A stretch of DNA of 64,000 nt from a phage, in sequence record PZ386947.1; one strand, given 5' to 3'. Positions 6,696 to 49,564 of this stretch are shown piece after piece. Every line of letters begins with the position of its first letter. Positions within the stretch are counted from its first letter, which is position 1. The position numbers and the translations under genes are program-made. Under the pieces are notes generated by a model. The model saw nothing but the letters and a program-made list of their open reading frames with translations. It did no database searches and had not been told where the DNA came from.

Positions 6696-8378
6696 TTAAA
6701 CCATTACAGTAAATCGACCAACTTTCTTCATTTGAAGATGCTGACCATATTCTTGCGGGTCATGGTCTTTATGTGAAATTATAAAAACATTAGTGTTTTT
6801 CATTGAATTTATAATATTAGCTACACCTTTAATACCTTCGGCATCAAATGACCCATCAAACACTTCATCGAGTATTAATGTACTAATACTAACACCAGAT
6901 ACAATAGAAGCAATATCACGCCAAGTAAATAAAAGAGCAATATCAATTCGTGCTTTTTCACCTTCACTAAATGAAGCATAACTAAAATCTTCACGACCAC
7001 GGGATTTAATTGTCTCATTAAATTCTTCATCTAATGTAAACACATAATCCGCTTCCATTATTTTAAGATAATGGTTAATCTGCTTATTAAATAATGGAAT
7101 GTACTTTTTAATAATAGCACCTTTAATACCAGAATCTTTGAGCATATCAGTCAAAATTCCTCGGTGGTATTTTTCCATTACTAAATTAGTTTTTGTCTTA
7201 ACAATTTTATCAAGTTCTTCTTGAAGCAGTGCTATTTCATCAGCATGGTCAATAAACTCAGAAGATGCTTTTTCTATAGCCGCTTTAACTTTTTTGGCTT
7301 TATCTACCGTCGTGATTAGAGATTGCTTTTTATTGCGAATATCATTTGCCAACGACTGTTGGGTTTTAATATTATCTCGGTATTCATCAACAAGAACTTT
7401 TAAATTATCACGATGTGTTGAAAGCTGTTCAAACGAATGCGTACATTCAGAAACTTTATCTTTAATTTTAGAAACAACTTTATCACCGGAACTCAATTGT
7501 GACAAACAGGTTGGACATAATCCACCTTCGTGATACATATTAATGACTTTATTATACGAGTCAATTTTTGATTTAATTAAAACTGCTTCTTGACCGATTT
7601 TATTAAATGCATCAGTCGGGTCTTCATCCAAAACAATATTAACTAATCTTTCGTTAGCTTCTTCTATTTCCGATTTTAGCGTTCTAGCTTCTTTTGCCAA
7701 ATCATCATACATATTTTGCAGACGAGTAAGGTTGTCACCCGTTAATTTTTTCTGGCGTTCAACGTTATCATTATATATTTTAATTTGTTGGATAATACTA
7801 TCTTTTTTAACATCAAGCACTTGGTTCTGCGAATTTAATTCACGTATTAGTGCTTTATTAAGCTTATCCATTTCAGCTAATGTTCCTACCTCAAGCAGGT
7901 CTTCCACAAGCTTTCTTCGCGCAGGGGTCGACAAACCCATGAAAGGGGTATACCCTGCTGTACCAAGGACAACAATCTGCTTGAAACTGGCATATGACAT
8001 TCCGATAAGCTGTTCAAATTCTGCTTGGAAATCTTTACTGCTGGCAGATTCATTAAGACGTGTACCGTTAACGGTGATTTCGAAAACGTTTGGTTTTTGT
8101 CCTCTTTTGATATAGTACTTTTTCTCATCATATTCCATCCACAGTTCAACTAAAAGTTCTTTCTTATTTGTGCTGTTTATTAATTGACCTTTCTTTACAT
8201 CACGAAATGGTTTGCCAAAAAGCCCAAATGTGATGGCTTCTAACATAGTAGACTTACCACCGCCATTTCGGCCAGTAATAAGAGTTTTTTGAACCTTATC
8301 TAATTGAATGTCAACTCCATTTTGACCAACTGACATTATATTTTTATATTTTACTCTATTAAGTTTAAATGATTTCAT
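6696..8378 (-). CDS. 46: recombination endonuclease subunit gp46 (SbcC/Rad50-like ATPase)
   Basis: 560 aa; N-terminal Walker A GRNGGGKST, long coiled-coil middle with CPTC zinc hook, C-terminal signature/Walker B LILDEVFDGSFD. Confidence 0.95.
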   Translation of the reverse strand: MKSFKLNRVKYKNIMSVGQNGVDIQLDKVQKTLITGRNGGGKSTMLEAITFGLFGKPFRDVKKGQLINSTNKKELLVELWMEYDEKKYYIKRGQKPNVFEITVNGTRLNESASSKDFQAEFEQLIGMSYASFKQIVVLGTAGYTPFMGLSTPARRKLVEDLLEVGTLAEMDKLNKALIRELNSQNQVLDVKKDSIIQQIKIYNDNVERQKKLTGDNLTRLQNMYDDLAKEARTLKSEIEEANERLVNIVLDEDPTDAFNKIGQEAVLIKSKIDSYNKVINMYHEGGLCPTCLSQLSSGDKVVSKIKDKVSECTHSFEQLSTHRDNLKVLVDEYRDNIKTQQSLANDIRNKKQSLITTVDKAKKVKAAIEKASSEFIDHADEIALLQEELDKIVKTKTNLVMEKYHRGILTDMLKDSGIKGAIIKKYIPLFNKQINHYLKIMEADYVFTLDEEFNETIKSRGREDFSYASFSEGEKARIDIALLFTWRDIASIVSGVSISTLILDEVFDGSFDAEGIKGVANIINSMKNTNVFIISHKDHDPQEYGQHLQMKKVGRFTVMV

Positions 8379-8393
8379 TTTGTATCCAATTGT

Positions 8394-9248
8394 TCACAAT
8401 GAAGAAAATTCTTTAACTAAAGCCTGTAATGAAGCCTCTATTGGATATCCATTCTTAACTAACATTTTCCTAAACATTACATGTTTAGGACGATTATATG
8501 ATATCCACAATTCATACAATTTATCTTTATTATCCCAATGATAGCCTTTTCGTCGAGATGCTATATGAGCTTTTCTAATCTCCGGATTTTTCCAACTAGC
8601 AGCTACTGAATTTGATATAGCTATTTTATATTCAGGTTTTGATAAAGCAGCACGAACAGCCTTTTGGTGTTTAATTTTATTTTCTTCGTTATTAAACCAT
8701 TCCCTTGAAGCCATTGAAATTTTTTGTTTTGTTTTAAAATTATTTAATCTTTCTTTATTATCTTTCCTATTTTTTGCTACTGAAAAATATTTTAATGCCC
8801 TTTCTCTAGCAGCATTTCTATTTTGCGGATTTGAATAATACTGTTGAAGCCTTTTTGATATTGTGTCACTTACATCTTGTTTTATAAAACTATATTCAGC
8901 AGCTATTAAATCAACTTCGGCTAAAGATAAATTTTTATATGTTTTTCCTGACATCATTCTATTTAAAGCATTTAGCATTTTTCCATTTTTACCTTTTGCT
9001 AATAAGAAGTGTGCTTTAAAATGATTAAAATGACTTAAATTAACTAAATTCCATGTAGATTTTAAATATTCAGGAAATATTGATTTAGGAAGCACGTGGT
9101 GTGCTTCCGTTTTACCTGGAGTTTTAACAGTTGAATTCACAGAAATAAAATTAATGTAAGACTTGGCGTCTTCTTCACTCAACGCTAATTTTTCAACTAA
9201 TTCCTTTATTAAAAATTCATCATTAATGTCAAGTTTAAAATTCTTCAC
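8394..9248 (-). CDS. HNH homing endonuclease with NUMOD-like repeats
   Basis: 284 aa; HNH core EAHHVLPKS...NLVNLSHFNHFKAHFLLAK; C-terminal basic repeats; paralogous to the ORF at 29124..29903. GTG start overlapping upstream stop (GTGA). Confidence 0.85.
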   Translation of the reverse strand: MKNFKLDINDEFLIKELVEKLALSEEDAKSYINFISVNSTVKTPGKTEAHHVLPKSIFPEYLKSTWNLVNLSHFNHFKAHFLLAKGKNGKMLNALNRMMSGKTYKNLSLAEVDLIAAEYSFIKQDVSDTISKRLQQYYSNPQNRNAARERALKYFSVAKNRKDNKERLNNFKTKQKISMASREWFNNEENKIKHQKAVRAALSKPEYKIAISNSVAASWKNPEIRKAHIASRRKGYHWDNKDKLYELWISYNRPKHVMFRKMLVKNGYPIEASLQALVKEFSSL

Positions 9249-36834: not shown

Positions 36835-37215
36835 TCAATTAGAAAATAAATTTATCCAAGATTGTTCTTTAATTAAAAATGGCTCAGAATCATATGCCAT
36901 TAAACTCTGTGTGATTAGTCCTTTAAAAGGCCCATCAATAAATTCCATGGTAAAATATGGAATTTTATTCATTAGCCGTGCATTAGGAGCCGTGCACAAA
37001 ACTCTGCATCCTTTGAATACGCCTTTTTGTAATTTGTATTGCTTGGGATAAAATTCGCTCAAAATGTTATTTTTTGCCAAAATTTCAAAATGATTCACCA
37101 ATTTATTTTTAATAGTTTTTGGCGAAAAATAAAGATATTCGAAAAGCTGAGTGTCTGTCATCATTGCATTCCGATTACGAAAAACTGTGGACGAGTAATA
37201 CCACCAATGCAACAT
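36835..37215 (-). CDS. hypothetical protein
   Basis: 126 aa ORF. Confidence 0.45.
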   Translation of the reverse strand: MLHWWYYSSTVFRNRNAMMTDTQLFEYLYFSPKTIKNKLVNHFEILAKNNILSEFYPKQYKLQKGVFKGCRVLCTAPNARLMNKIPYFTMEFIDGPFKGLITQSLMAYDSEPFLIKEQSWINLFSN

Positions 37216-37748
37216 TTAATATTACAGCAGCAGTGTACAGTGTCAATATGGACACTATAAATCTTATCCATATCAGGAGATTTGACAGGCTCATCAATTA
37301 TATACAAAATTCGCGAAAGCGATAAACCTCTGAACTTGCTTCCTTTATTACCAATAAAACTGCGCACAGAATCAGTAAATAAACGAAAACGTATATCATC
37401 ATTAGAATAACGCGAAAATTCCTTTTTAATATTATCTGCGGAAATTTTAGCGTAAGCTGAAGTATTAGAAAGAACAATAACTGTTCCACCGTCATACAAC
37501 CAATTAGCGGCAAAATTAGTTACTGCAGTTGATTTACCAGATTGACGCCCACCATCTAGTCGAAGTGTACAATACTGTTTAAGTAAGTCTTCAAATGGCG
37601 GGATATATTCGTTTTTACAAATTTCTTCTACTCTAGCATCAGAATGGTGTGTAAAAGCATTCATCAGGGATAGATAAGGACCAGTTAAAAATGTTCTCAT
37701 TTTGTTCTCTCTAGGTTTGGGCCATTCCATGGCGCATGAATTGTCCAT
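37161..37748 (-). CDS. P-loop NTPase-like protein
   Basis: 195 aa ORF with Walker A-like GGRQSGKST and Walker B-like ILYIIDEP; start uncertain. Confidence 0.5.
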   Translation of the reverse strand: MDNSCAMEWPKPRENKMRTFLTGPYLSLMNAFTHHSDARVEEICKNEYIPPFEDLLKQYCTLRLDGGRQSGKSTAVTNFAANWLYDGGTVIVLSNTSAYAKISADNIKKEFSRYSNDDIRFRLFTDSVRSFIGNKGSKFRGLSLSRILYIIDEPVKSPDMDKIYSVHIDTVHCCCNIKCCIGGITRPQFFVIGMQ

Positions 37749-37845
37749 TTCTGTATTTACCCATTACCGCACTTGGGCTCGACCTTATTACAGGTTGGCG
37801 GGAATCCCTCACAGAATCATGAGGTCCAGGTTATTCCCATGTTAT

Positions 37846-38262
37846 TTAAATGTAAATATTTTTGCCGTAATACTTATACCAGTGTGGCTTCATTAAAATT
37901 TTTTCATCGAGTCGTTGTTGACTCAACTTAATAGCTGATTTGCATGGATTATAATCATTTTTCCATTCTACTGGAATATCGCTGATGTCAGGAACTTCAG
38001 TATCTTTTATACTGAACCCGCGTTTTAAGCATTCCGTTATAATGTCCGATTGACGCTTTCGCAAAAATTCTAACTTATCGTAAAAGAAAGTAACATGACC
38101 AGAACCTAAAATAAATTTAGAAGATATTTTAAAATCTTTAACGCGCTTACCGTTTGCCACATGCTTACGAACTATACCAAAAACACGCGGCAATTCACGG
38201 TATTCTGCGATTAAATGTTGATCAGCAAGTTCAGATACTAAAGTCAAATTAATACGAGTCAT
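37846..38262 (-). CDS. denV: endonuclease V (pyrimidine dimer glycosylase)
   Basis: 138 aa; [44 protein letters not shown]... matches T4 DenV. Confidence 0.95.
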
Positions 38263-38287
38263 TTTATCCCTCCAAGTAACTGTGAAT

Positions 38288-38316
38288 ATACTATCACAAT
38301 TCTAGGAGAAAGTAAA
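38288..38316 (-). promoter_or_regulatory. T4-type early promoter upstream of denV
   Basis: Minus strand GTTTACT, 17 nt, TAGTAT. Confidence 0.55.
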
Positions 38317-38321
38317 CAACT

Positions 38322-38852
<531 letters not shown>

Positions 38853-41730: not shown

Positions 41731-42018
41731 AGTATTTCCTTAGGTTGATTAAGATTTAAAATCCGTGAGAGTATTATACTCCGGATAGTTTGTAAACTAT
41801 TTCAACATCGCCTTTTGCTGCTTTATAACCTTCAGCCCAAGATATAACCGAGTTTTTATCTGAAGATTCAAATTCTGGCATTGGGCTTTCGCCAATGTTC
41901 ACGCAGTATGTTTCTTCATTTTCGTCGAACCAAATAATTAAAGTAGTCATTTATTTCTCCGTTTCTGTATTTGTTTTGATAAGTCTATAATAACACCGTC
42001 CTTGGTGTTTGTACACAA

Positions 42019-42523: not shown

Positions 42524-42997
42524 TTATTTGATTTGTTTAGCAGACCAAATGCGATCTTTAATAATTTTTTGGATGTCTTCAACATACTCAAGAGAGTGAG
42601 CATGTGGATTATCTTTGAAACTATAAGCACGAGCTAGTTTTTGGCCTTCAGTTTTGATTACTAAAAGCTCTTTAAGGATAGCTTCATATTTGGAGATAAT
42701 TCCTTTAACAATATTTTTTTCTTGTGCAGCTTTAGGATCTGCTTTAGGAGCAGGTTTACCCGAAGCCTTTGCAAAAGCAGCGCCAGTAGCAACTAAACTT
42801 TTCCAGGCCATACTAACTGCATTTCCCGTAAATCCTTCCGCTTTCATGTCGCGTGCGAACTGGAATCGCGATTCATCAGAAGCATCTTTATAAGAATATT
42901 TACCCGCTGCAATGGCTGCTTTTGCGACAGCTTGAATTTCGGTGCTAGATGCTTCATTTAACACCGCTTCATTTAAAAATTGAGTATATGATTTCAT
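42524..42997 (-). CDS. internal-protein-like basic protein with capsid targeting sequence
   Basis: 157 aa; N-terminus MKSYTQFLNEA resembles the T4 IP capsid-targeting sequence MKTYQEFIAEA with an L-x-E prohead protease site; Ala/Lys-rich. Confidence 0.6.
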   Translation of the reverse strand: MKSYTQFLNEAVLNEASSTEIQAVAKAAIAAGKYSYKDASDESRFQFARDMKAEGFTGNAVSMAWKSLVATGAAFAKASGKPAPKADPKAAQEKNIVKGIISKYEAILKELLVIKTEGQKLARAYSFKDNPHAHSLEYVEDIQKIIKDRIWSAKQIK

Positions 42998-43044
42998 CTT
43001 ATTTCCTGTTTTAATTCGTGGTTTTAATATACTTATTTATACTA

Positions 43045-43070
43045 AAAAGCCCCAACCTTTCGGTCGGGGC
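43045..43070 (-). terminator. rho-independent terminator (copy 2)
   Basis: Same hairpin AAAAGCCCCAACCTTTCGGTCGGGGCTAAG; minus-strand U-tract follows. Confidence 0.6.
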
Positions 43071-43749: not shown

Positions 43750-43825
43750 TGGTCGAGGCAGTAGGGATCGAACCTACGACCTAGGACTTAGAAGGTCCTT
43801 GCTCTTCCTTCTGAGCTATGCCCCG
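43750..43825 (-). tRNA. tRNA-Arg (anticodon UCU)
   Basis: Hand-folded: acceptor CGGGGCA/TGCCTCG, T-arm CCTAC-GATCGAA-GTAGG (plus view), anticodon loop CTTCTAA, encoded CCA. Confidence 0.85.
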
Positions 43826-43829
43826 TAAT

Positions 43830-43919
43830 TGGGGTGACCGATGGGAGTCGAACCACCCGAGTCGCAATGACAATGGATTTACAGTCCACACCGCTACCTC
43901 TACGGGATAACTCCCCTTA
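43830..43919 (-). ncRNA. tRNA-like RNA with Tyr-type anticodon loop (possible pseudo-tRNA or stable RNA)
   Basis: Sits between tRNA-Arg and tRNA-Ile with CCA-like end; good anticodon stem-loop GUGGA-CUGUAAA-UCCAU but T-stem and acceptor stem do not pair canonically. Confidence 0.35.
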
Positions 43920-43929
43920 ATTCTTAATT

Positions 43930-44004
43930 TGGTGGCCCTGGGTGGAATTGAACCACCATCTGGCGATTATGAGTCGCTTGCTTGAACCTTCCAGCTACAG
44001 GGCC
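43930..44004 (-). tRNA. tRNA-Ile (anticodon CAU, Ile2-type; Met not excluded)
   Basis: Acceptor GGCCCTG, T-arm GGTGG-TTCAATT-CCACC, anticodon loop CTCATAA, encoded CCA. Confidence 0.8.
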
Positions 44005-44005
44005 T

Positions 44006-44081
44006 TGGTGCTGATTGACGGAATCGAACCGCCGACCTTCTCATTACAAGTGAGTTGCTCTACCTACTGAGCTAAATCAGC
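44006..44081 (-). tRNA. tRNA-Thr (anticodon UGU)
   Basis: Acceptor GCTGATT, T-arm GGCGG-TTCGATT-CCGTC, anticodon loop CTTGTAA, encoded CCA. Confidence 0.85.
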
Positions 44082-44086
44082 AAAAC

Positions 44087-44176
44087 TGGCGGAGGCGATA
44101 GGATTTGAACCTATGAGTCGCCGGAGCGACTGCCGGTTTTCAAGACCGGTGCATTAAACCACTCTGCCACGCCTCC
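44087..44176 (-). tRNA. tRNA-Ser (anticodon UGA), class II
   Basis: Sequence GGAGGCGTGGCAGAGTGG...CCGGTCTTGAAAACCGG... with long variable arm; matches T4 tRNA-Ser as I recall it. Confidence 0.9.
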
Positions 44177-44182
44177 AAATAT

Positions 44183-44833
44183 TTATATATTGTTAATTTG
44201 ATTTAGAATTCTTTTTGCTTGAGTATGACTTACGCCAATATGCTTAGCATATTTAGACAATTCGCCACGTTTAGAAAAATCATATAATTTAGAAATTTCT
44301 ATTCTTCTTTTTCTTTCATCCGCAGAAACTTTTGCTTCGTTTGCTTTTGCTATTTTACGTTTAGCTTCTTGAGAATGAGTTTTACCAGCAAAGCCATTCT
44401 TCATTAATCCATTTGAAGACCATCCTTTTAATTTTCCGTTAGAATGTGCCTTTTTAACACCCAATGAAATTAATTCGCGTTGCTGATCTGTCATAGGATA
44501 ATTATTTATATGATCCCATCCACCTTCACCTCCAAGTTTTAAATTATACACATCTGGTCTATTTAAAAACTCTTCTGTGACAATATTTTTCTCGGCTTCA
44601 AGCATAGATTCTTTATCGTCAAAATACTCTAATATTTCTTTAGAAAAATTTTCTATACCATATTTATCTTGGGCTCTTTTTAATAATTTACCAGAACCCA
44701 TATATCCATCATCTAAATTTTCGGTAGAATGCACACCAATATAAATTTTATTATTAATTTTATTTGTTATTTTATAAAGATAAAAATGCATATCAGTCCC
44801 TAATAAAGAACTGAGCGTCTCACGACGAGTCAT
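44183..44833 (-). CDS. segB: GIY-YIG homing endonuclease (SegB-like)
   Basis: 216 aa; GIY-YIG motif FYLYKITNKINNKIYIGVH; C-terminal DNA-binding region; sits inside the tRNA cluster as T4 segB does. Confidence 0.85.
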   Translation of the reverse strand: MTRRETLSSLLGTDMHFYLYKITNKINNKIYIGVHSTENLDDGYMGSGKLLKRAQDKYGIENFSKEILEYFDDKESMLEAEKNIVTEEFLNRPDVYNLKLGGEGGWDHINNYPMTDQQRELISLGVKKAHSNGKLKGWSSNGLMKNGFAGKTHSQEAKRKIAKANEAKVSADERKRRIEISKLYDFSKRGELSKYAKHIGVSHTQAKRILNQINNI

Positions 44834-44837
44834 AAAT

Positions 44838-44911
<74 letters not shown>

Positions 44912-44916
44912 AAATT

Positions 44917-45003
44917 TGGTGCGAGAAGTGGGACTCGAACCCACAAGGAAATCATTCCGCAGCATTTTAAGTGCTGTGCCTTTACCAATTTGACCATTCT
45001 CGC
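44917..45003 (-). tRNA. tRNA-Leu (anticodon UAA), class II
   Basis: Acceptor GCGAGAA, long variable arm, anticodon loop CTTAAAA, T-arm GTGGG-TTCGAGT-CCCAC, encoded CCA. Confidence 0.88.
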
Positions 45004-45009
45004 GCTATA

Positions 45010-45642
45010 TTATTTATTACGTGAAAAAGACTGTTCTATCAATTCTGGACACTTTCGTTCTATCCATTTTCTAGCTTTTTGTGGGCTTATACCTATTATT
45101 TTAGCAGCTTTACTAACCCATCCAAATTTAGAATAATCGATTTTAACTAATTCTTCGTAAATTTCATCAGTTAAAATCTTTTCATTAATATTTACCAGTA
45201 AATGATATAATTTATTATCATTAGCAATTTTAATGAATCTTTTATAGTTTCCGCCTTTACTTAAACCTAATGAAGTAATTGCAGATGATATAGTAGCCGA
45301 ATTTAATAGTGCGTTTAAAATTTCTTCATCACTAACATTATAACGCTTTTTATTATTTTTAATATTTTTACCAGCAAAAGTATCAGTTTGCGAATGGCAG
45401 TTTGGACATAATAATCTTAAATTTGATTTAAGATGATTTTTGTTATTTCCATCAATATGGTCTAATTGCAGAACAATATGCTTATTTTGCCATTTTGAAA
45501 TTTTACAAATTGCACACTCATATGGAAAAATATTTTCTTTTATTATTTTGTCTTTCAGCTTTCCTGTACTAAAATTTGGATGTTTTCCTTCAAAAATTTC
45601 AGCTAATTTAGTATCCATAATATGATTCCCAATTATTAACAA
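45010..45642 (-). CDS. HNH homing endonuclease (zinc-finger HNH type)
   Basis: 210 aa; CAIC...HIVLQLDHIDGNNKNHLKSNLRLLCPNCH HNH-Zn motif; stop codon 7 nt from the tRNA-Leu 5' end. Confidence 0.85.
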   Translation of the reverse strand: MLIIGNHIMDTKLAEIFEGKHPNFSTGKLKDKIIKENIFPYECAICKISKWQNKHIVLQLDHIDGNNKNHLKSNLRLLCPNCHSQTDTFAGKNIKNNKKRYNVSDEEILNALLNSATISSAITSLGLSKGGNYKRFIKIANDNKLYHLLVNINEKILTDEIYEELVKIDYSKFGWVSKAAKIIGISPQKARKWIERKCPELIEQSFSRNK

Positions 45643-46525: not shown

Positions 46526-46906
46526 TCAGCCTTCATCAACAATAGTATGAGTGTGGGCATTTACAATTTGCCACCAATCAAAGCGATTAGAACCACACAT
46601 CGGTTTGTTTTCATTTTCTTTGATAATATCACGAAGTTCATCTTCGGTAGCGGCTTTCGCGATTAAATCAGCATATCCACCGCGAGGATAATAATTATCA
46701 CCTGCAAAAAGTAAAAAGTTCGGTTTAATATTATTGAACTCTTCAAGAGTAATAACTTTTCCTGTCGGTTGAACAATCTCTACATATTTATATCCTAATT
46801 TTTGAGCAGCATCTACTGCTTCAAGCAAAGTATCATGAGCCCATCCAATTTGACAACCTGGCTTTTCAGATGGATTAGCCTGATAATCCGCGTACACTTT
46901 ATACAT
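46526..46906 (-). CDS. hypothetical protein
   Basis: ORF track 46526..46945; start trimmed to MYKVYADYQ (AGGTGA RBS). Confidence 0.5.
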   Translation of the reverse strand: MYKVYADYQANPSEKPGCQIGWAHDTLLEAVDAAQKLGYKYVEIVQPTGKVITLEEFNNIKPNFLLFAGDNYYPRGGYADLIAKAATEDELRDIIKENENKPMCGSNRFDWWQIVNAHTHTIVDEG

Positions 46907-46907
46907 T

Positions 46908-47093
46908 CTATTCACCTTTAGAAATTTTATCCATAACGATAGCAATTAAACCAATTAAAAATGCTACTACAAGTGAAAAAACATTTTCTGCTGTAGTTAA
47001 TAATCCGCATATAAATCCAACAAACATTGAAAAACTAAAAGCAGAAGCAGAAATTGCAATAGCAACATTTCGAATTAATTCACAACGTTTCAT
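46908..47093 (-). CDS. small membrane protein
   Basis: ORF track 46908..47162; trimmed to MKRCELIRNVAIAISASAFSF... (GAGGAG RBS); upstream extension is promoter read-through. Confidence 0.45.
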   Translation of the reverse strand: MKRCELIRNVAIAISASAFSFSMFVGFICGLLTTAENVFSLVVAFLIGLIAIVMDKISKGE

Positions 47094-47121
47094 TTTATTC
47101 TCCTCAGTAGCTGATAGGGTA

Positions 47122-47150
47122 ATAGTATCACTACTAAAACCCAATGTAAA
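47122..47150 (-). promoter_or_regulatory. T4-type early promoter
   Basis: Minus strand TTTACA, 17 nt, TACTAT. Confidence 0.65.
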
Positions 47151-47154
47151 CAAT

Positions 47155-47379
47155 TTATTCAACGCCAGCGGCTTTCAAAAGTTTCTTAAGATTGGCAACA
47201 CCTTGAGCAGAAAATGTGACCTTGCCACCTTTTTCACTGATAGAACCAACCAATTTAGCAAGTTTATCATTAGGAATTTTTTTAAAATCAGCCAATGTTC
47301 CATCAAAGGTTTTTGAAACAAAAGGCAGTTCGTCTTCGCGTCTTTTAGCTTCTACAATAAATTCTTGATATGTTTTCAT
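47155..47379 (-). CDS. internal-protein-like (capsid targeting sequence)
   Basis: Starts MKTYQEFIVEA, near-identical to the T4 IP capsid-targeting sequence with I-V-E cleavage site; small basic protein. Confidence 0.65.
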   Translation of the reverse strand: MKTYQEFIVEAKRREDELPFVSKTFDGTLADFKKIPNDKLAKLVGSISEKGGKVTFSAQGVANLKKLLKAAGVE

Positions 47380-47415
47380 TTTAGTTTCCATTTGAGTGTT
47401 TGTTTTGATAGGGTA

Positions 47416-47444
47416 ATAGTATCACTACTAAAACCCAATGTAAA
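47416..47444 (-). promoter_or_regulatory. T4-type early promoter
   Basis: Same conserved element as at 47122. Confidence 0.65.
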
Positions 47445-47463
47445 CAACTTTGTGAAAAATTTA

Positions 47464-47751
47464 TTACAAAAGATTTTTAGCAATAATCTTGAGATGTGCC
47501 GCAGAAATGTGTTTAGCTTTAAACAACGCAGTTTCTTCAGCAGGAGAGATAACGATTGTAGCACCATCCTTTTTAGCAGACCACCCATCGCCTAGGTAAA
47601 CAGTACCTTTGATTTCTTCGCCATCAACCAGACTAATCATTGGTTTACCTTCTCGTCCTTTATTTGCTTTAATAACTTCAGAAGTAAGAGTAGCTTCGGT
47701 AATAGTAGAAACCGGGGTAGTTGTAGAAGTAAATTCTTTGAAAGTTTTCAT
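47464..47751 (-). CDS. internal-protein-like (capsid targeting sequence)
   Basis: Starts MKTFKEFTSTTTPVSTITEA; AGGAAA RBS; own promoter copy upstream. Confidence 0.6.
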   Translation of the reverse strand: MKTFKEFTSTTTPVSTITEATLTSEVIKANKGREGKPMISLVDGEEIKGTVYLGDGWSAKKDGATIVISPAEETALFKAKHISAAHLKIIAKNLL

Positions 47752-47781
47752 TTTATTTTCCTAATTAATTTTGATAGGGTA

Positions 47782-47810
47782 ATAGTATCACAACTAAAAC
47801 CCTATGTAAA
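47782..47810 (-). promoter_or_regulatory. T4-type early promoter
   Basis: Same conserved element. Confidence 0.65.
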
Positions 47811-47823
47811 CAACTTTGTGAAA

Positions 47824-48081
47824 TTATTTTAAATCTTCTAATCGTTTCTTCATCTTAGAACCGTTCTTAGCGATTTCGCCTGCATCAGAGCATAATGCTA
47901 AAAGCGCTTTAACTTTAGTTTGGTCTCCTTTAAAAGATGAAGGATCAACAGCAGCAGCAAGTTCTTTAATACGAGAGAAAAGACGCTCAGCTTCAGCTAA
48001 AGCCATTCCAAGCTTTACTTCCATACCGCGGGAAGATTCAGTAATAGTAGTTTTTGTAGCAAACTCTTTGAAAGTTTTCAT
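47824..48081 (-). CDS. internal-protein-like (capsid targeting sequence)
   Basis: Starts MKTFKEFATKTTITES; own promoter copy upstream. Confidence 0.6.
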   Translation of the reverse strand: MKTFKEFATKTTITESSRGMEVKLGMALAEAERLFSRIKELAAAVDPSSFKGDQTKVKALLALCSDAGEIAKNGSKMKKRLEDLK

Positions 48082-48111
48082 TTTATTTTCCTAATTAATT
48101 TTGATGAGGTA

Positions 48112-48140
48112 ATAGTATCACTACCTCATCAGTATGTAAA
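48112..48140 (-). promoter_or_regulatory. T4-type early promoter
   Basis: Same conserved element. Confidence 0.65.
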
Positions 48141-48153
48141 CAACTTTGTGAAA

Positions 48154-48838
<685 letters not shown>

Positions 48839-48839
<1 letters not shown>

Positions 48840-49564
48840 TATAGTACCTTTAGTGTATTTTTAATTTTAGAAAAAAGTTCTTCAAGAGAACCATCGTTTG
48901 TAATTACTAAATCGCCATCACGAATTGGCAATCCAGCTTCTGTAATATGTGTATCATTGGATTTTTGACCAGGACGAACTACATGAATTACTGTAGCACC
49001 CATCGCCCTAGCCGCATCCATTTCATGATCTTGACGGGTATCAGGAACGATATAATAATCATAACCTGAGTTAAATTTATCAAGATAATCTAAAGCAAAT
49101 AATTTTACCCAGTACATGCGGTCGAAGTTATTAACAATCAAATCCGTACCTAGGGCTTGCATCAGACGACGGACTGACCATTGATCTTCAATATTATTTA
49201 TAACGTCAATAATCTTGTTAAATGCTACGGAATTAACTGATTCTTGTCCTTCGTCATCAAAAACAAACACACCCTTAATTGGGCTTTTACCGTTAAGATA
49301 GCAAAATGCTTGTTCCATAATCGTGATTACTTCTGATTTAGTCAGATTTAAATTAGTCTCACGATCATAGTCAATTCCTTCAAACTCTTTACGAGTTAAG
49401 CAAGGATAGTCAGTGTTTGCTGCAAATACTCCCCATGCATAAGCCAATGCATCCTTAATAGGACCAGCAAGTTGGTATTTAACTGCAGAATAATTGCTCA
49501 TGATAAAATCAGCAGTAGTATCTTTTCCACTACGCTTTACACCGCTTAAAAAGATTAGTTTCAT
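48839..49564 (-). CDS. 1: deoxynucleoside monophosphate kinase
   Basis: Start MKLIFLSGVKRSGKDTTADF (P-loop), 241 aa; the ORF-track N-terminal extension is rejected. Confidence 0.95.

Follow-up and report, generated by a model that had tools for sequence, protein, structure and literature searches.

The internal-protein locus and its genes

By sequence, the 64-kb window (the whole stretch of DNA analyzed here) is identified as a Tequatrovirus genome, and the array described below occupies the polymorphic ipI locus of this T4-like phage, between 57B and trna.4. The array consists of three open reading frames on the minus strand, in the order ip5, ipI, and ip8, at the same site where T4 carries ipI. 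The gene order agrees with that of T4, RB14, and CM8, and the genes of the locus are the following.

48154..48612, minus strand: 57B, Acb1 anti-CBASS phosphodiesterase family, upstream boundary gene of the internal-protein (IP) locus (Pfam PF23474 Acb1, 7.5e-60; 99.3% identical to T4 57B)
47824..48081, minus strand: ip5, 85 aa (phrog_3499 'internal head protein', 1.2e-48)
47464..47751, minus strand: ipI, 95 aa, precursor of IPI* (Pfam IPI_T4, 7.3e-54)
47155..47379, minus strand: ip8, 74 aa (phrog_8765 'internal virion protein', 2e-25)
46908..47093, minus strand: trna.4, 61-aa predicted membrane protein, downstream boundary of the IP locus (100% identical to T4 Trna.4; phrog_1692)

A sequence-only reading of this DNA had proposed three small genes whose products carry leaders like those of T4 internal proteins and L/I-x-E protease sites, and the ORFs, the leaders, and the sites were all confirmed. 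Sequence searches place all three products in internal-protein families (Pfam IPI_T4 7e-54; PHROG 1e-48 and 2e-25). The description of the array genes as "IP-like" in that reading was apt as to family but fell short for the middle gene (47464-47751), whose product is T4 IpI itself (100% identical over 95 aa). Residues 20-95 of this protein are those of IPI* in PDB entry 2JUB (76/76 residues identical), and its match to PF11634 IPI_T4 scores 180 bits (E = 7.3e-54), where the gathering threshold of the family is 25. PF11634 matches neither Ip5 nor Ip8, Pfam overall returned sub-threshold noise only for Ip5, Ip8, and ORF157 (described below), and NCBIfam has no family for any of these or for IpI. 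The closest named relatives are in RB15 (Z35082), with 98.8% identity for Ip5 and 97.3% for Ip8. In public records, Ip5 is named in RB14 and CM8, and RefSeq names Ip8, IpI, and Ip5 in CM8. The locus and its architecture are already known, having been described in 1985-1994, and the genes are already annotated. An Rfam search of the 40-50 kb interval returned six tRNAs only.

The capsid-targeting sequence spans the first 10-19 codons of each ORF in the array and, in Ip5, IpI, Ip8, and ORF157, closes with an L/I-x-E motif of the prohead protease gp21. With a slash at the cleavage position, the leaders of the array are MKTYQEFIVE/A in Ip8 (site I-V-E10/A), MKTFKEFTSTTTPVSTITE/A in IpI (I-T-E19/A), and MKTFKEFATKTTITE/S in Ip5 (I-T-E15/S). 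The N-termini, which are MKTYQEF in Ip8, MKTFKEF in IpI and Ip5, and MKSYTQF in ORF157, all have an aromatic fourth residue and Phe7. The leader pattern MK[ST][YF]x1-2[EQ]F is found in four ORFs of the 64-kb window, compared to a mean of 0.01 over 200 shuffles. A role in targeting is reported for residues 4 and 7 and a role in processing for residues 8 and 10 (PMC9026906), and ten leader residues are enough to load foreign proteins into T4 heads (PMC9026906, PMC3012670; the targeting sequence, gp21, and IPI* are treated in both). Ip8 has Y4, F7, I8, and E10; IpI and Ip5 have F4 and F7, followed by I-T-E further downstream. The solved mature IpI protein (2JUB) begins exactly at A20, matching the predicted cleavage after E19. 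The 64-kb window does not reach the genes for the gp21 protease and for the core proteins gp22, gp67, and gp68; in CM8, which is identical to the window on both sides of the array, gp21, gp68, and scaffold proteins are encoded.

In pairwise BLASTP of Ip5, IpI, and Ip8, similarity is confined to the leader, and on this comparison the three proteins are unrelated outside it and are not paralogues. The predicted mature forms are all basic (pI 9.0-9.8), as are T4 IpII and IpIII; mature Ip5 would have 70 aa and a pI of 9.5, and mature Ip8 would have 64 aa and a pI of 9.8. A basic charge and a high copy number would also be compatible with a role in DNA packing alone. The AlphaFold2 models, both of moderate confidence, predict a two-helix hairpin for Ip5 (pLDDT 72) and a small alpha/beta domain for Ip8 (pLDDT 69), and the solved structure of IPI* is described in the literature as helices flanking a sheet. 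Foldseek of the Ip5 model against the PDB gave generic helical hairpins only (best E = 0.6), and for the Ip8 model the best E was 0.05 and the TM-scores were low; no PDB structure matches either model at E < 0.01, and no functional inference is possible from the folds.

Promoter blocks and the cassette mosaic

The intergenic spacers of the array contain a repeated block, and a late-promoter motif lies upstream of the array in gene 1.

49195..49202, minus strand: TATAAATA, late-promoter motif within gene 1, closest to the array of the late promoters upstream, corresponding to T4 PL1
48082..48153 (core 48102-48146), minus strand: block 4, intergenic; putative early promoter; a 13-bp stem-loop spans its -10 hexamer and is followed by the Shine-Dalgarno AGGA
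47752..47823 (core 47772-47816), minus strand: block 3, intergenic; putative early promoter and stem-loop, z = -2.5
47380..47463 (core 47406-47450), minus strand: block 2, intergenic; putative early promoter and stem-loop, z = -2.4; 0 mismatches to block 1 over 40 nt
47094..47154 (core 47112-47156), minus strand: block 1, intergenic; putative early promoter of trna.4 and downstream flank of the ip8 cassette, corresponding to T4 PE1

Every block has the form GTTTACA-17 nt-TACTAT on the minus strand, and the copies at 47112, 47406, 47772, and 48102 are 100, 98, 93, and 78% identical, respectively, to the reference copy. With a 40-nt probe, three copies were found at two or fewer mismatches where 0 are expected. 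It had been proposed from the sequence that each gene is preceded by the same promoter element of roughly 60 bp. The repeat is real, but there are four copies rather than three, and the conserved core measures 45 nt within intergenic spacers of 61-84 nt. The copy with the lowest coordinates lies downstream of ip8 and upstream of trna.4, and the cassettes are therefore flanked on both sides. The units are spaced by 294, 366, and 330 nt. When the ipI and ip5 cassettes are compared with each other, the repeat is longer, with 88% identity over 123 nt, and reaches into the leader codons. The fourth, flanking promoter copy, the identity of IpI, and the prior description and annotation of the locus had been missed by the sequence-only reading.

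In alignment, the blocks are homologous to the T4 spacers that are annotated PE2 and PE1 with overlapping stem-loops. Block 4 is identical to the T4 57B-ipI spacer and corresponds to PE2; the T4 record X03016 annotates PE2 with a stem-loop at this site, and PE1 with a 'pot. IpI terminator' stem-loop at the site of block 1. The four blocks are putatively active early promoters of the T4 type, and they are among the 16 GTTTAC-N18-TAnnAT sites that the window contains against an expectation of 0.22, every one of them on the minus strand. The RNA of block 4 folds with -17.4 kcal/mol (z = -3.4). With z = -1.2, the block 1 stem-loop falls short of significance, as opposed to z values of -2.4 to -3.4 for the other three blocks. 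The stems are AT-rich and straddle the -10 hexamer, and their arms differ by block type (TGATGAGGTA/TACCTCATCA versus GGGT.../...ACCC) yet pair. No TATAAATA late promoter was found inside the array, so the supply of these proteins as prohead components would need continued early or middle expression or read-through from gene 1. The position of the motif in gene 1 agrees with the -10 region of PL1 in X03016, 362 nt into the gene.

A comparison with relatives shows that the cassettes behave as units. The ip8 cassette corresponds to a 294-bp indel in comparison with T4 and RB14, and two mutually identical 40-nt copies bound it; the ip5 cassette is a 330-bp indel in comparison with T4, with the 123-nt repeat at its ends. 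Both cassette indels have their breakpoints inside repeated blocks. T4 (X03016, AF158101; 57B-PE2-ipI-PE1-trna.4) shares with the window the flanking genes, the IpI protein, the 57B-proximal block, and promoters with stem-loops on both sides, but has one cassette where the window has three, with ip5 added upstream of ipI and ip8 downstream. The locus carries ip5-ipI in RB14, ip5-ip9-ip7-ip8 in RB15, and ip5-ipI-ip8 in T4_ev240 and CM8. In UFV-AREG1 it carries ipI and then three ORFs, the last of which is ip8 and the other two of which resemble ip9 and ip7 by length only. The RB15 record (Z35082, 'DNA for Ip5, Ip9, Ip7, Ip8'), a deposit that belongs to the 1994 work of Repoila et al., encodes Ip5 and Ip8 that are 97-99% identical to those of the window, and only the combination of genes differs. 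The Escherichia phage T4_ev240 (LR597657) is 97.8% identical to the window. The Shigella phage CM8 (NC_054939) has the same three genes in the same order, with 0 mismatches over 7467 nt and 5026 nt on either side (12.5 kb compared), but its record also contains a 974-bp tandem duplication, absent from the window, that comprises ipI, ip5, and a truncated 57B.

The architecture was already described by Repoila et al. in 1994, as relayed in PMC2839356 and PMC12373910, and the T4 promoters were annotated in 1985. According to these sources, the survey by Repoila, Tetart, Bouet, and Krisch (EMBO J 1994) covered 49 phages. The T-even IP loci, as they relay it, share with the window unrelated ORFs, a leader of about 11 residues, and early-promoter blocks on both sides, and are variable in the number, order, and identity of their ORFs, as is the case here. 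A further likeness is to the PeSL cassettes of RB49 and phi1 (Arbiol et al. 2010, PMC2839356), in which early-promoter and stem-loop repeats flank small accessory ORFs and for which modular shuffling by homologous recombination was proposed. The elements of the IP locus are analogues of PeSLs rather than homologues (PMC2839356): as in the window, they have T4-type early promoters and weaker, AT-richer stems that lack the polyG/polyC of PeSLs. In addition, mini-circle intermediates have been demonstrated for PeSLs. The near-identical blocks that flank every cassette probably serve as recombination sites, through which cassettes would be gained, lost, and reordered between related phages.

ORF157 and the denV-e spacer

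A fourth IP-like gene had been proposed outside the array, along with the absence of ipII and ipIII from their place in T4. The features that bear on these proposals are the following.

42524..42997, minus strand: ORF157, with a capsid-targeting-like leader, MKSYTQFLNE/AVLNE/A (phrog_2280 'unknown function')
43034..43041, minus strand: TATAAATA, putative late promoter of ORF157 at a distance of 36 nt upstream, with a terminator hairpin before it (~43044-43070)
38325-38816: e, 62 nt from denV
38263..38324, minus strand: e-denV spacer, the empty second IP locus, 62 nt with one early promoter (38288-38317); T4 has ipIII and ipII here
37852-38262: denV, bordering the e spacer

Both proposals held up. 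The gap between denV and e is 62 nt, and tblastn found neither ipII nor ipIII in it; T4 has both there. ORF157 does begin like a leader. It contains two potential sites, L-N-E10/A and L-N-E15/A, retains all four critical positions (Y4, F7, L8, and E10), and belongs to a family in which the leader is conserved down to 35-41% identity. The gene belongs to neither of the classical IP loci; it is located between e.8 and the stable-RNA/tRNA region, lacks the promoter repeat, and has a late promoter in place of the early-promoter blocks. A Klebsiella phage homologue (41% protein identity) has the same arrangement of hairpin, TATAAATA, and leader. ORF157 matches 512 phage records and is called 'hypothetical protein' in 40 of the 40 records listed.

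These features make ORF157 a candidate for an unrecognized internal, injected protein encoded at a third site with its own late promoter, an assignment that we hold tentatively and at slightly less than even odds. [quoted passage not shown] ORF157 is the one mildly new lead; the array itself is already known. If the assignment is true, ORF157 would be an extra injected protein that annotation pipelines miss.

A literature search on Ip4, Ip5, Ip7, Ip8, and Ip9 returned only unrelated papers on inositol phosphates and interview studies, and nothing was found on Ip5, Ip8, or ORF157 in the virion proteomics literature on T4-like phages. Internal proteins are not mentioned in the AEM 2026 paper on BrxU or in Nolan 2006 (PMC1524935).

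Function and origin of the cassettes

The locus as a whole is best explained as three self-contained cassettes, ip5, ipI, and ip8, with capsid-targeting leaders at a T4-type ipI locus, to which we assign a probability of about 0.88. A cassette is made up of a putative early promoter with its overlapping stem-loop, a ribosome-binding site, and the ORF. In T4, it is established that the leader attaches the precursor to the scaffolding core while the prohead is being assembled, that the gp21 protease cuts the leader off, and that the small basic mature proteins remain in the head with the DNA and are ejected with it into the next host. For T4 IpI, its presence in the mature head, processing, and ejection were shown experimentally (PMC3012670, PMC9026906). 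Since they would be ejected with the DNA, the internal proteins of this phage would be present before any phage gene expression. Also established for T4 is the function of IPI*, which binds and inhibits a restriction enzyme of the GmrSD type that cleaves glucosyl-hmC DNA. The proposal that IPI acts as an anti-restriction factor agrees with the report that IpI inhibits the GmrSD of CT596 and that Ip1, Ip2, and Ip3 each block a distinct GmrSD (PMC12373910). From its 100% identity to the characterized protein, we infer that the IpI encoded here is an inhibitor of GmrSD of the CT596 type (PMC12373910, PMC3012670). Gene 42 and beta-gt, of the glucosyl-hmC pathway, were sought to tie IpI to its substrate and are not within the 64-kb window.

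Ip5 and Ip8 are probably packaged in the same manner and most likely neutralize other host defenses, probably other modification-dependent nucleases. Targets other than GmrSD could be involved, because ten ip genes that were tested gave no additional GmrSD targets. The idea of a diversified array of injected anti-defense cassettes, which the sequence-only reading had reached, coincides with the published view of the locus (Repoila 1994, as relayed in PMC2839356 and PMC12373910), and we infer that it applies to Ip5 and Ip8 as well.

A different use of the same proteins has to be considered, in which Ip5 and Ip8 are packaged but structural (neutralizing DNA charge or acting in core assembly or head-size control) and IpI alone is directed against host defense. 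The small, basic mature forms predicted for both (pI 9.5 and 9.8) would suit such a role, as would the ~300 copies of each IP per T4 head, the accumulation of polyheads in IPIII-minus or triple-IP mutants (PMC9026906), the contacts of internal-protein lysines with DNA phosphates (PMC3012670), and the lack of new inhibition when ten ip genes were set against extra GmrSD systems (PMC12373910). Generic charge neutralization, however, leaves unexplained why unrelated folds are swapped among close relatives while each family is 80-99% conserved. Moreover, the T4 IP genes are non-essential and a specific GmrSD target has now been assigned to each of the three T4 IPs (PMC12373910), and we consider the structural role unlikely. 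It is highly improbable that Ip5 and Ip8 are early cytoplasmic proteins that are not injected, with a shared N-terminus that is a by-product of the conserved DNA repeat and no head-targeting signal. Although the 123-nt repeat (88%, ipI versus ip5) does extend into the coding region and each gene has an early promoter and none a late one, the critical positions 4, 7, 8, and 10 are retained despite differing DNA, and are retained also in ORF157, which lacks the promoter repeat. The loading of foreign proteins by ten leader residues (PMC9026906, PMC3012670) likewise argues for a genuine signal, and IpI, a proven virion protein, has the same cassette format.

The origin of the array could in principle lie in local duplication and divergence, which would make the three genes paralogues of one ancestral IP. 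The tandem units are of similar size (spacings of 294, 366, and 330 nt) with repeated flanks, and the 974-bp duplication in the CM8 record shows that such events are possible at this locus. We nevertheless give this origin hardly any weight and rejected it, because the proteins share nothing beyond the leader in BLASTP. The folds of the Ip5 hairpin, the Ip8 alpha/beta domain, and the IPI* sheet with flanking helices also differ, as far as the models predict, and the same cassettes recur in other combinations in other phages, which points to assortment of pre-existing modules.

The window adds no new principle to the cassette organization of this locus; it adds a further combination, ip5-ipI-ip8, in a genome whose second IP locus is empty. 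The cassette locus is a classic example of how T4-like phages exchange accessory genes as modules. The array stands directly beside Acb1, and counter-defense genes are therefore concentrated in a short stretch. Internal proteins are pre-made weapons that arrive with the phage DNA, of which IpI, Ip2, and Ip3 each disarm a different GmrSD enzyme.

Internal-protein genes between 57B and trna.4

In this T4-like (Tequatrovirus) genome the internal-protein (IP) region is on the minus strand, and an ORF listing confirmed the three small genes proposed by the sequence-only reading. Further upstream of 57B are a 76-aa gene, a dNMP kinase gene and then a tail-completion gene.

Genes of the IP array and its neighbours
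46908-47093, minus strand, trna.4 membrane-protein gene, 61 aa, downstream of the three IP genes
47155-47379, minus strand, ip8, 74 aa
47464-47751, minus strand, ipI, 95 aa
47824-48081, minus strand, ip5, 85 aa
48154-48612, minus strand, 57B, 152 aa, upstream of the three IP genes

Searches against known IPs placed all three products in internal-protein families. The middle gene had been called IP-like, which was right as to family; by sequence it is T4 ipI itself, with 100% identity across all 95 residues (tblastn), residues 20-95 identical to the solved structure of 'Internal protein I' (PDB 2JUB), and a score of 180 bits, where the cut-off is 25, for Pfam IPI_T4 ('Nuclease inhibitor from bacteriophage T4'). 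On the same type of evidence, the 85-aa gene is ip5: it matches phrog_3499 'internal head protein' (1.2e-48), carries the name Ip5 in the records of RB14 and Shigella phage CM8, and shares 98.8% identity with Ip5 of RB15. The 74-aa gene is ip8, matching phrog_8765 'internal virion protein' (2e-25) and being 97.3% identical to Ip8 of GenBank Z35082 ('Bacteriophage RB15 DNA for Ip5, Ip9, Ip7, Ip8'). Homologues of Ip8 with ~80% identity occur in 52 Klebsiella phage records, and other coliphages encode a 47% identical relative of Ip5 beside the lysozyme gene, presumably the second IP locus. In a 5.8-billion-protein database, the Ip5 and Ip8 families were found in T4-like phages only (5 and 15 clusters, respectively). 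The AlphaFold2 model of Ip5 is a two-helix hairpin (pLDDT 72) and that of Ip8 a small beta-alpha-alpha-beta-beta-alpha domain (pLDDT 69); a Foldseek search of the PDB with these models returned no match below E = 0.01.

The T4-type leader and cleavage site were borne out in all three proteins. In T4, residues 1-10 of IPIII suffice for head targeting, leader residues 4 and 7 serve targeting and 8 and 10 processing, and gp21 cleaves after L/I-x-E (PMC9026906). The leaders, with the cut shown as a slash, are MKTYQEFIVE/A (Ip8), MKTFKEFTSTTTPVSTITE/A (IpI) and MKTFKEFATKTTITE/S (Ip5), as compared to MKTYQEFIAE/A in both T4 IpII and IpIII; position 4 is aromatic, position 7 is Phe and an I-x-E site is present in 3/3. 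Solved mature IpI starts exactly after ITE19. A regex for the leader has four hits in the 64-kb window versus 0.01 in shuffles. The predicted mature proteins (64-76 aa, pI 9.0-9.8) are basic, resembling T4 IpII and IpIII in charge. A tandem array of IP genes is thus present, but pairwise protein comparison found Ip5, IpI and Ip8 unrelated beyond the leader, which rules out an array of paralogues. The gene directly upstream, 57B, encodes a member of the Acb1 anti-CBASS family (Pfam PF23474, 7.5e-60), so that counter-defence genes, known and candidate, adjoin each other here.

Promoter blocks and proposed cassette exchange

The repeated promoter element of the sequence-only reading is real but exists in four copies, not three, as the repeat finder located a 45-nt core at each of the following positions.

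Promoter-block cores (minus strand), identity to the reference copy, and folding
47112-47156, block 1, beside trna.4, 100%, -13.2 kcal/mol, z = -1.2
47406-47450, block 2, 98%, -16.9 kcal/mol, z = -2.4
47772-47816, block 3, 93%, -15.9 kcal/mol, z = -2.5
48102-48146, block 4, beside 57B, 78%, -17.4 kcal/mol, z = -3.4

Every core contains GTTTACA-17 nt-TACTAT, with TG preceding the -10 hexamer. Because the blocks are among the 16 GTTTAC-N18-TAnnAT sites of the window (444-48141, 0.22 expected), they are by sequence ordinary T4 early promoters. Their mutual similarity far exceeds the promoter consensus (40/40, 40/40 and 38/40 to a 40-nt probe, 0 chance matches expected), and a 123-nt repeat (88%) common to the ipI and ip5 cassettes extends into the leader codons. 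Predicted stems straddle the -10 hexamer, and their arms vary in sequence by block type with pairing retained. Downstream of ip8 is the lowest copy, which would drive trna.4; each cassette is therefore flanked at both ends. By alignment, the T4 57B-ipI spacer is identical to block 4 and the ipI-trna.4 spacer matches block 1. In GenBank X03016 both spacers are already marked as early promoters, the first as PE2 and the second as PE1, each overlapped by a 'pot. stem-loop', that of the second labelled 'pot. IpI terminator'. As a separate observation, 16/16 early-promoter matches are on the minus strand; early transcription units of the 64-kb stretch are strictly co-oriented.

A motif search found no late promoter inside the array, and the nearest one upstream (49195-49202, within gene 1) is the counterpart of T4 PL1. 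Prohead assembly would thus have to be supplied by early expression that continues, or by read-through.

Cassette break-points were taken from pairwise blastn of the window against T4 and RB14. Homology to both covers 46904-47156 and restarts at 47405, which makes the ip8 cassette a 294-bp indel between two mutually identical promoter copies. Homology to T4 covers 47405-47839 and restarts at 48047, so the ip5 cassette forms an indel of 330 bp with the 123-nt repeat at its ends. The break-points fit recombination between promoter blocks, the cassette-exchange mechanism credited to Repoila 1994 in PMC2839356. Megablast matched 775 of 50,697 phage records searched, and gene content at the locus varies from phage to phage within an order common to T4, RB14 and CM8 (3 - 1 - 57A - 57B - [IP genes] - trna.4 - trna.3 - trna.2 - tRNAs).

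Genes between 57B and trna.4
T4: ipI
RB14 / RB3: ip5-ipI
RB15: ip5-ip9-ip7-ip8
UFV-AREG1: ipI, then three ORFs, of which the last is ip8 (100% aa); the remaining two agree with ip9 and ip7 in length only (273 and 309 nt)
T4_ev240, CM8 and the window: ip5-ipI-ip8

CM8 (NC_054939) has 0 mismatches to the window over 7467 nt on one flank of the array and 5026 nt on the other. Its record, unlike the window, holds an additional 974-bp tandem duplication (window 47393-48366, compared with 7468-8441 of record L001, from CM8) that comprises ipI, ip5 and a truncated 57B. At its junction, window position 48366 is linked to 47393, outside the promoter repeats, and the second copy has 8 mismatches, all in 47470-47493 at the 3' end of ipI. 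This duplication could be real or an assembly artefact. Because the central points were described in 1985-1994, and RefSeq annotates them in this flank-identical genome, the array is a known finding of low interest.

Predicted loading, ejection and function

The reading of the array as injected anti-defence cassettes is supported by the internal-protein families of all three genes and agrees with the published view of the locus (PMC2839356, PMC12373910). In T4, IP precursors dock on the scaffolding core via the leader, gp21 cleaves the leader, and each mature IP, in several hundred copies, stays with the DNA and enters the next host upon ejection; IPI* blocks the GmrSD of E. coli CT596 (PMC9026906, PMC3012670). 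Ip2 and Ip3 each block one different GmrSD without cross-protection, and GmrSD variants are proposed there as the targets of every protein from the two Ip loci; when ten ip genes were tested on another five GmrSD systems, no additional interaction was seen (PMC12373910). By analogy, we infer that the Ip5 and Ip8 leaders would dock the precursors on the core for gp21 to remove, and that both proteins would be ejected and inhibit defences.

The second locus and a candidate fourth gene

At the second classical locus, a 62-nt gap with a single early promoter (38288-38317) separates denV (37852-38262) from e (38325-38816), and tblastn found neither ipII nor ipIII in the window, so the earlier remark that both are missing there is correct. 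The denV protein is 78% identical to that of T4, as compared to 95-98% for the adjacent e, nudE and vs.8. This divergent segment adjoins the empty locus (together 37852-38324), which suggests a recombination patch. There are further differences from T4. vs.8 (37164-37812, minus) aligns to T4 as two tblastn pieces, residues 1-37 and 37-216, whose reading frames differ and which meet near 37702/37703; compared with the T4T annotation, this indicates an apparent frameshift. No match to T4 e.7 is present in the window, and a 58-aa ORF (41774-41950, minus) takes its place between e.6 and e.8. The tRNA cluster (43750-45642, minus) holds six tRNAs (Arg, Met, Thr, Ser, Gly, Leu) interrupted by two ORFs, 44183-44833 ('homing endonuclease' in CM8) and 45010-45642 ('HNH endonuclease'), whereas the T4 cluster comprises eight tRNAs and a single endonuclease gene, segB.

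The fourth IP-like gene noticed earlier, a 157-aa ORF (42524-42997, minus; ORF157), does carry a capsid-targeting-like leader, MKSYTQFLNE/AVLNE/A, with Y4, F7, L8 and E10. Homologues down to 35-41% identity retain such a leader (MKTYNEFLNES..., MLEYSEFLKE..., MKFKEFLAEA...). ORF157 has no early-promoter block; a TATAAATA late promoter (43034-43041) lies 36 nt 5' of its start codon, right after a terminator hairpin. This layout of hairpin, TATAAATA and leader (42524-43070, minus) is kept in a 41% identical Klebsiella phage homologue (record L013, 2930-3534). T4 lacks ORF157, and matches occur in 512 phage records; 40/40 among the matches listed are annotated 'hypothetical protein', and the PHROG family is annotated with unknown function. 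It is credible from these features that ORF157 is an additional internal protein coded outside both classical loci, and it is the only lead with some, if mild, novelty.
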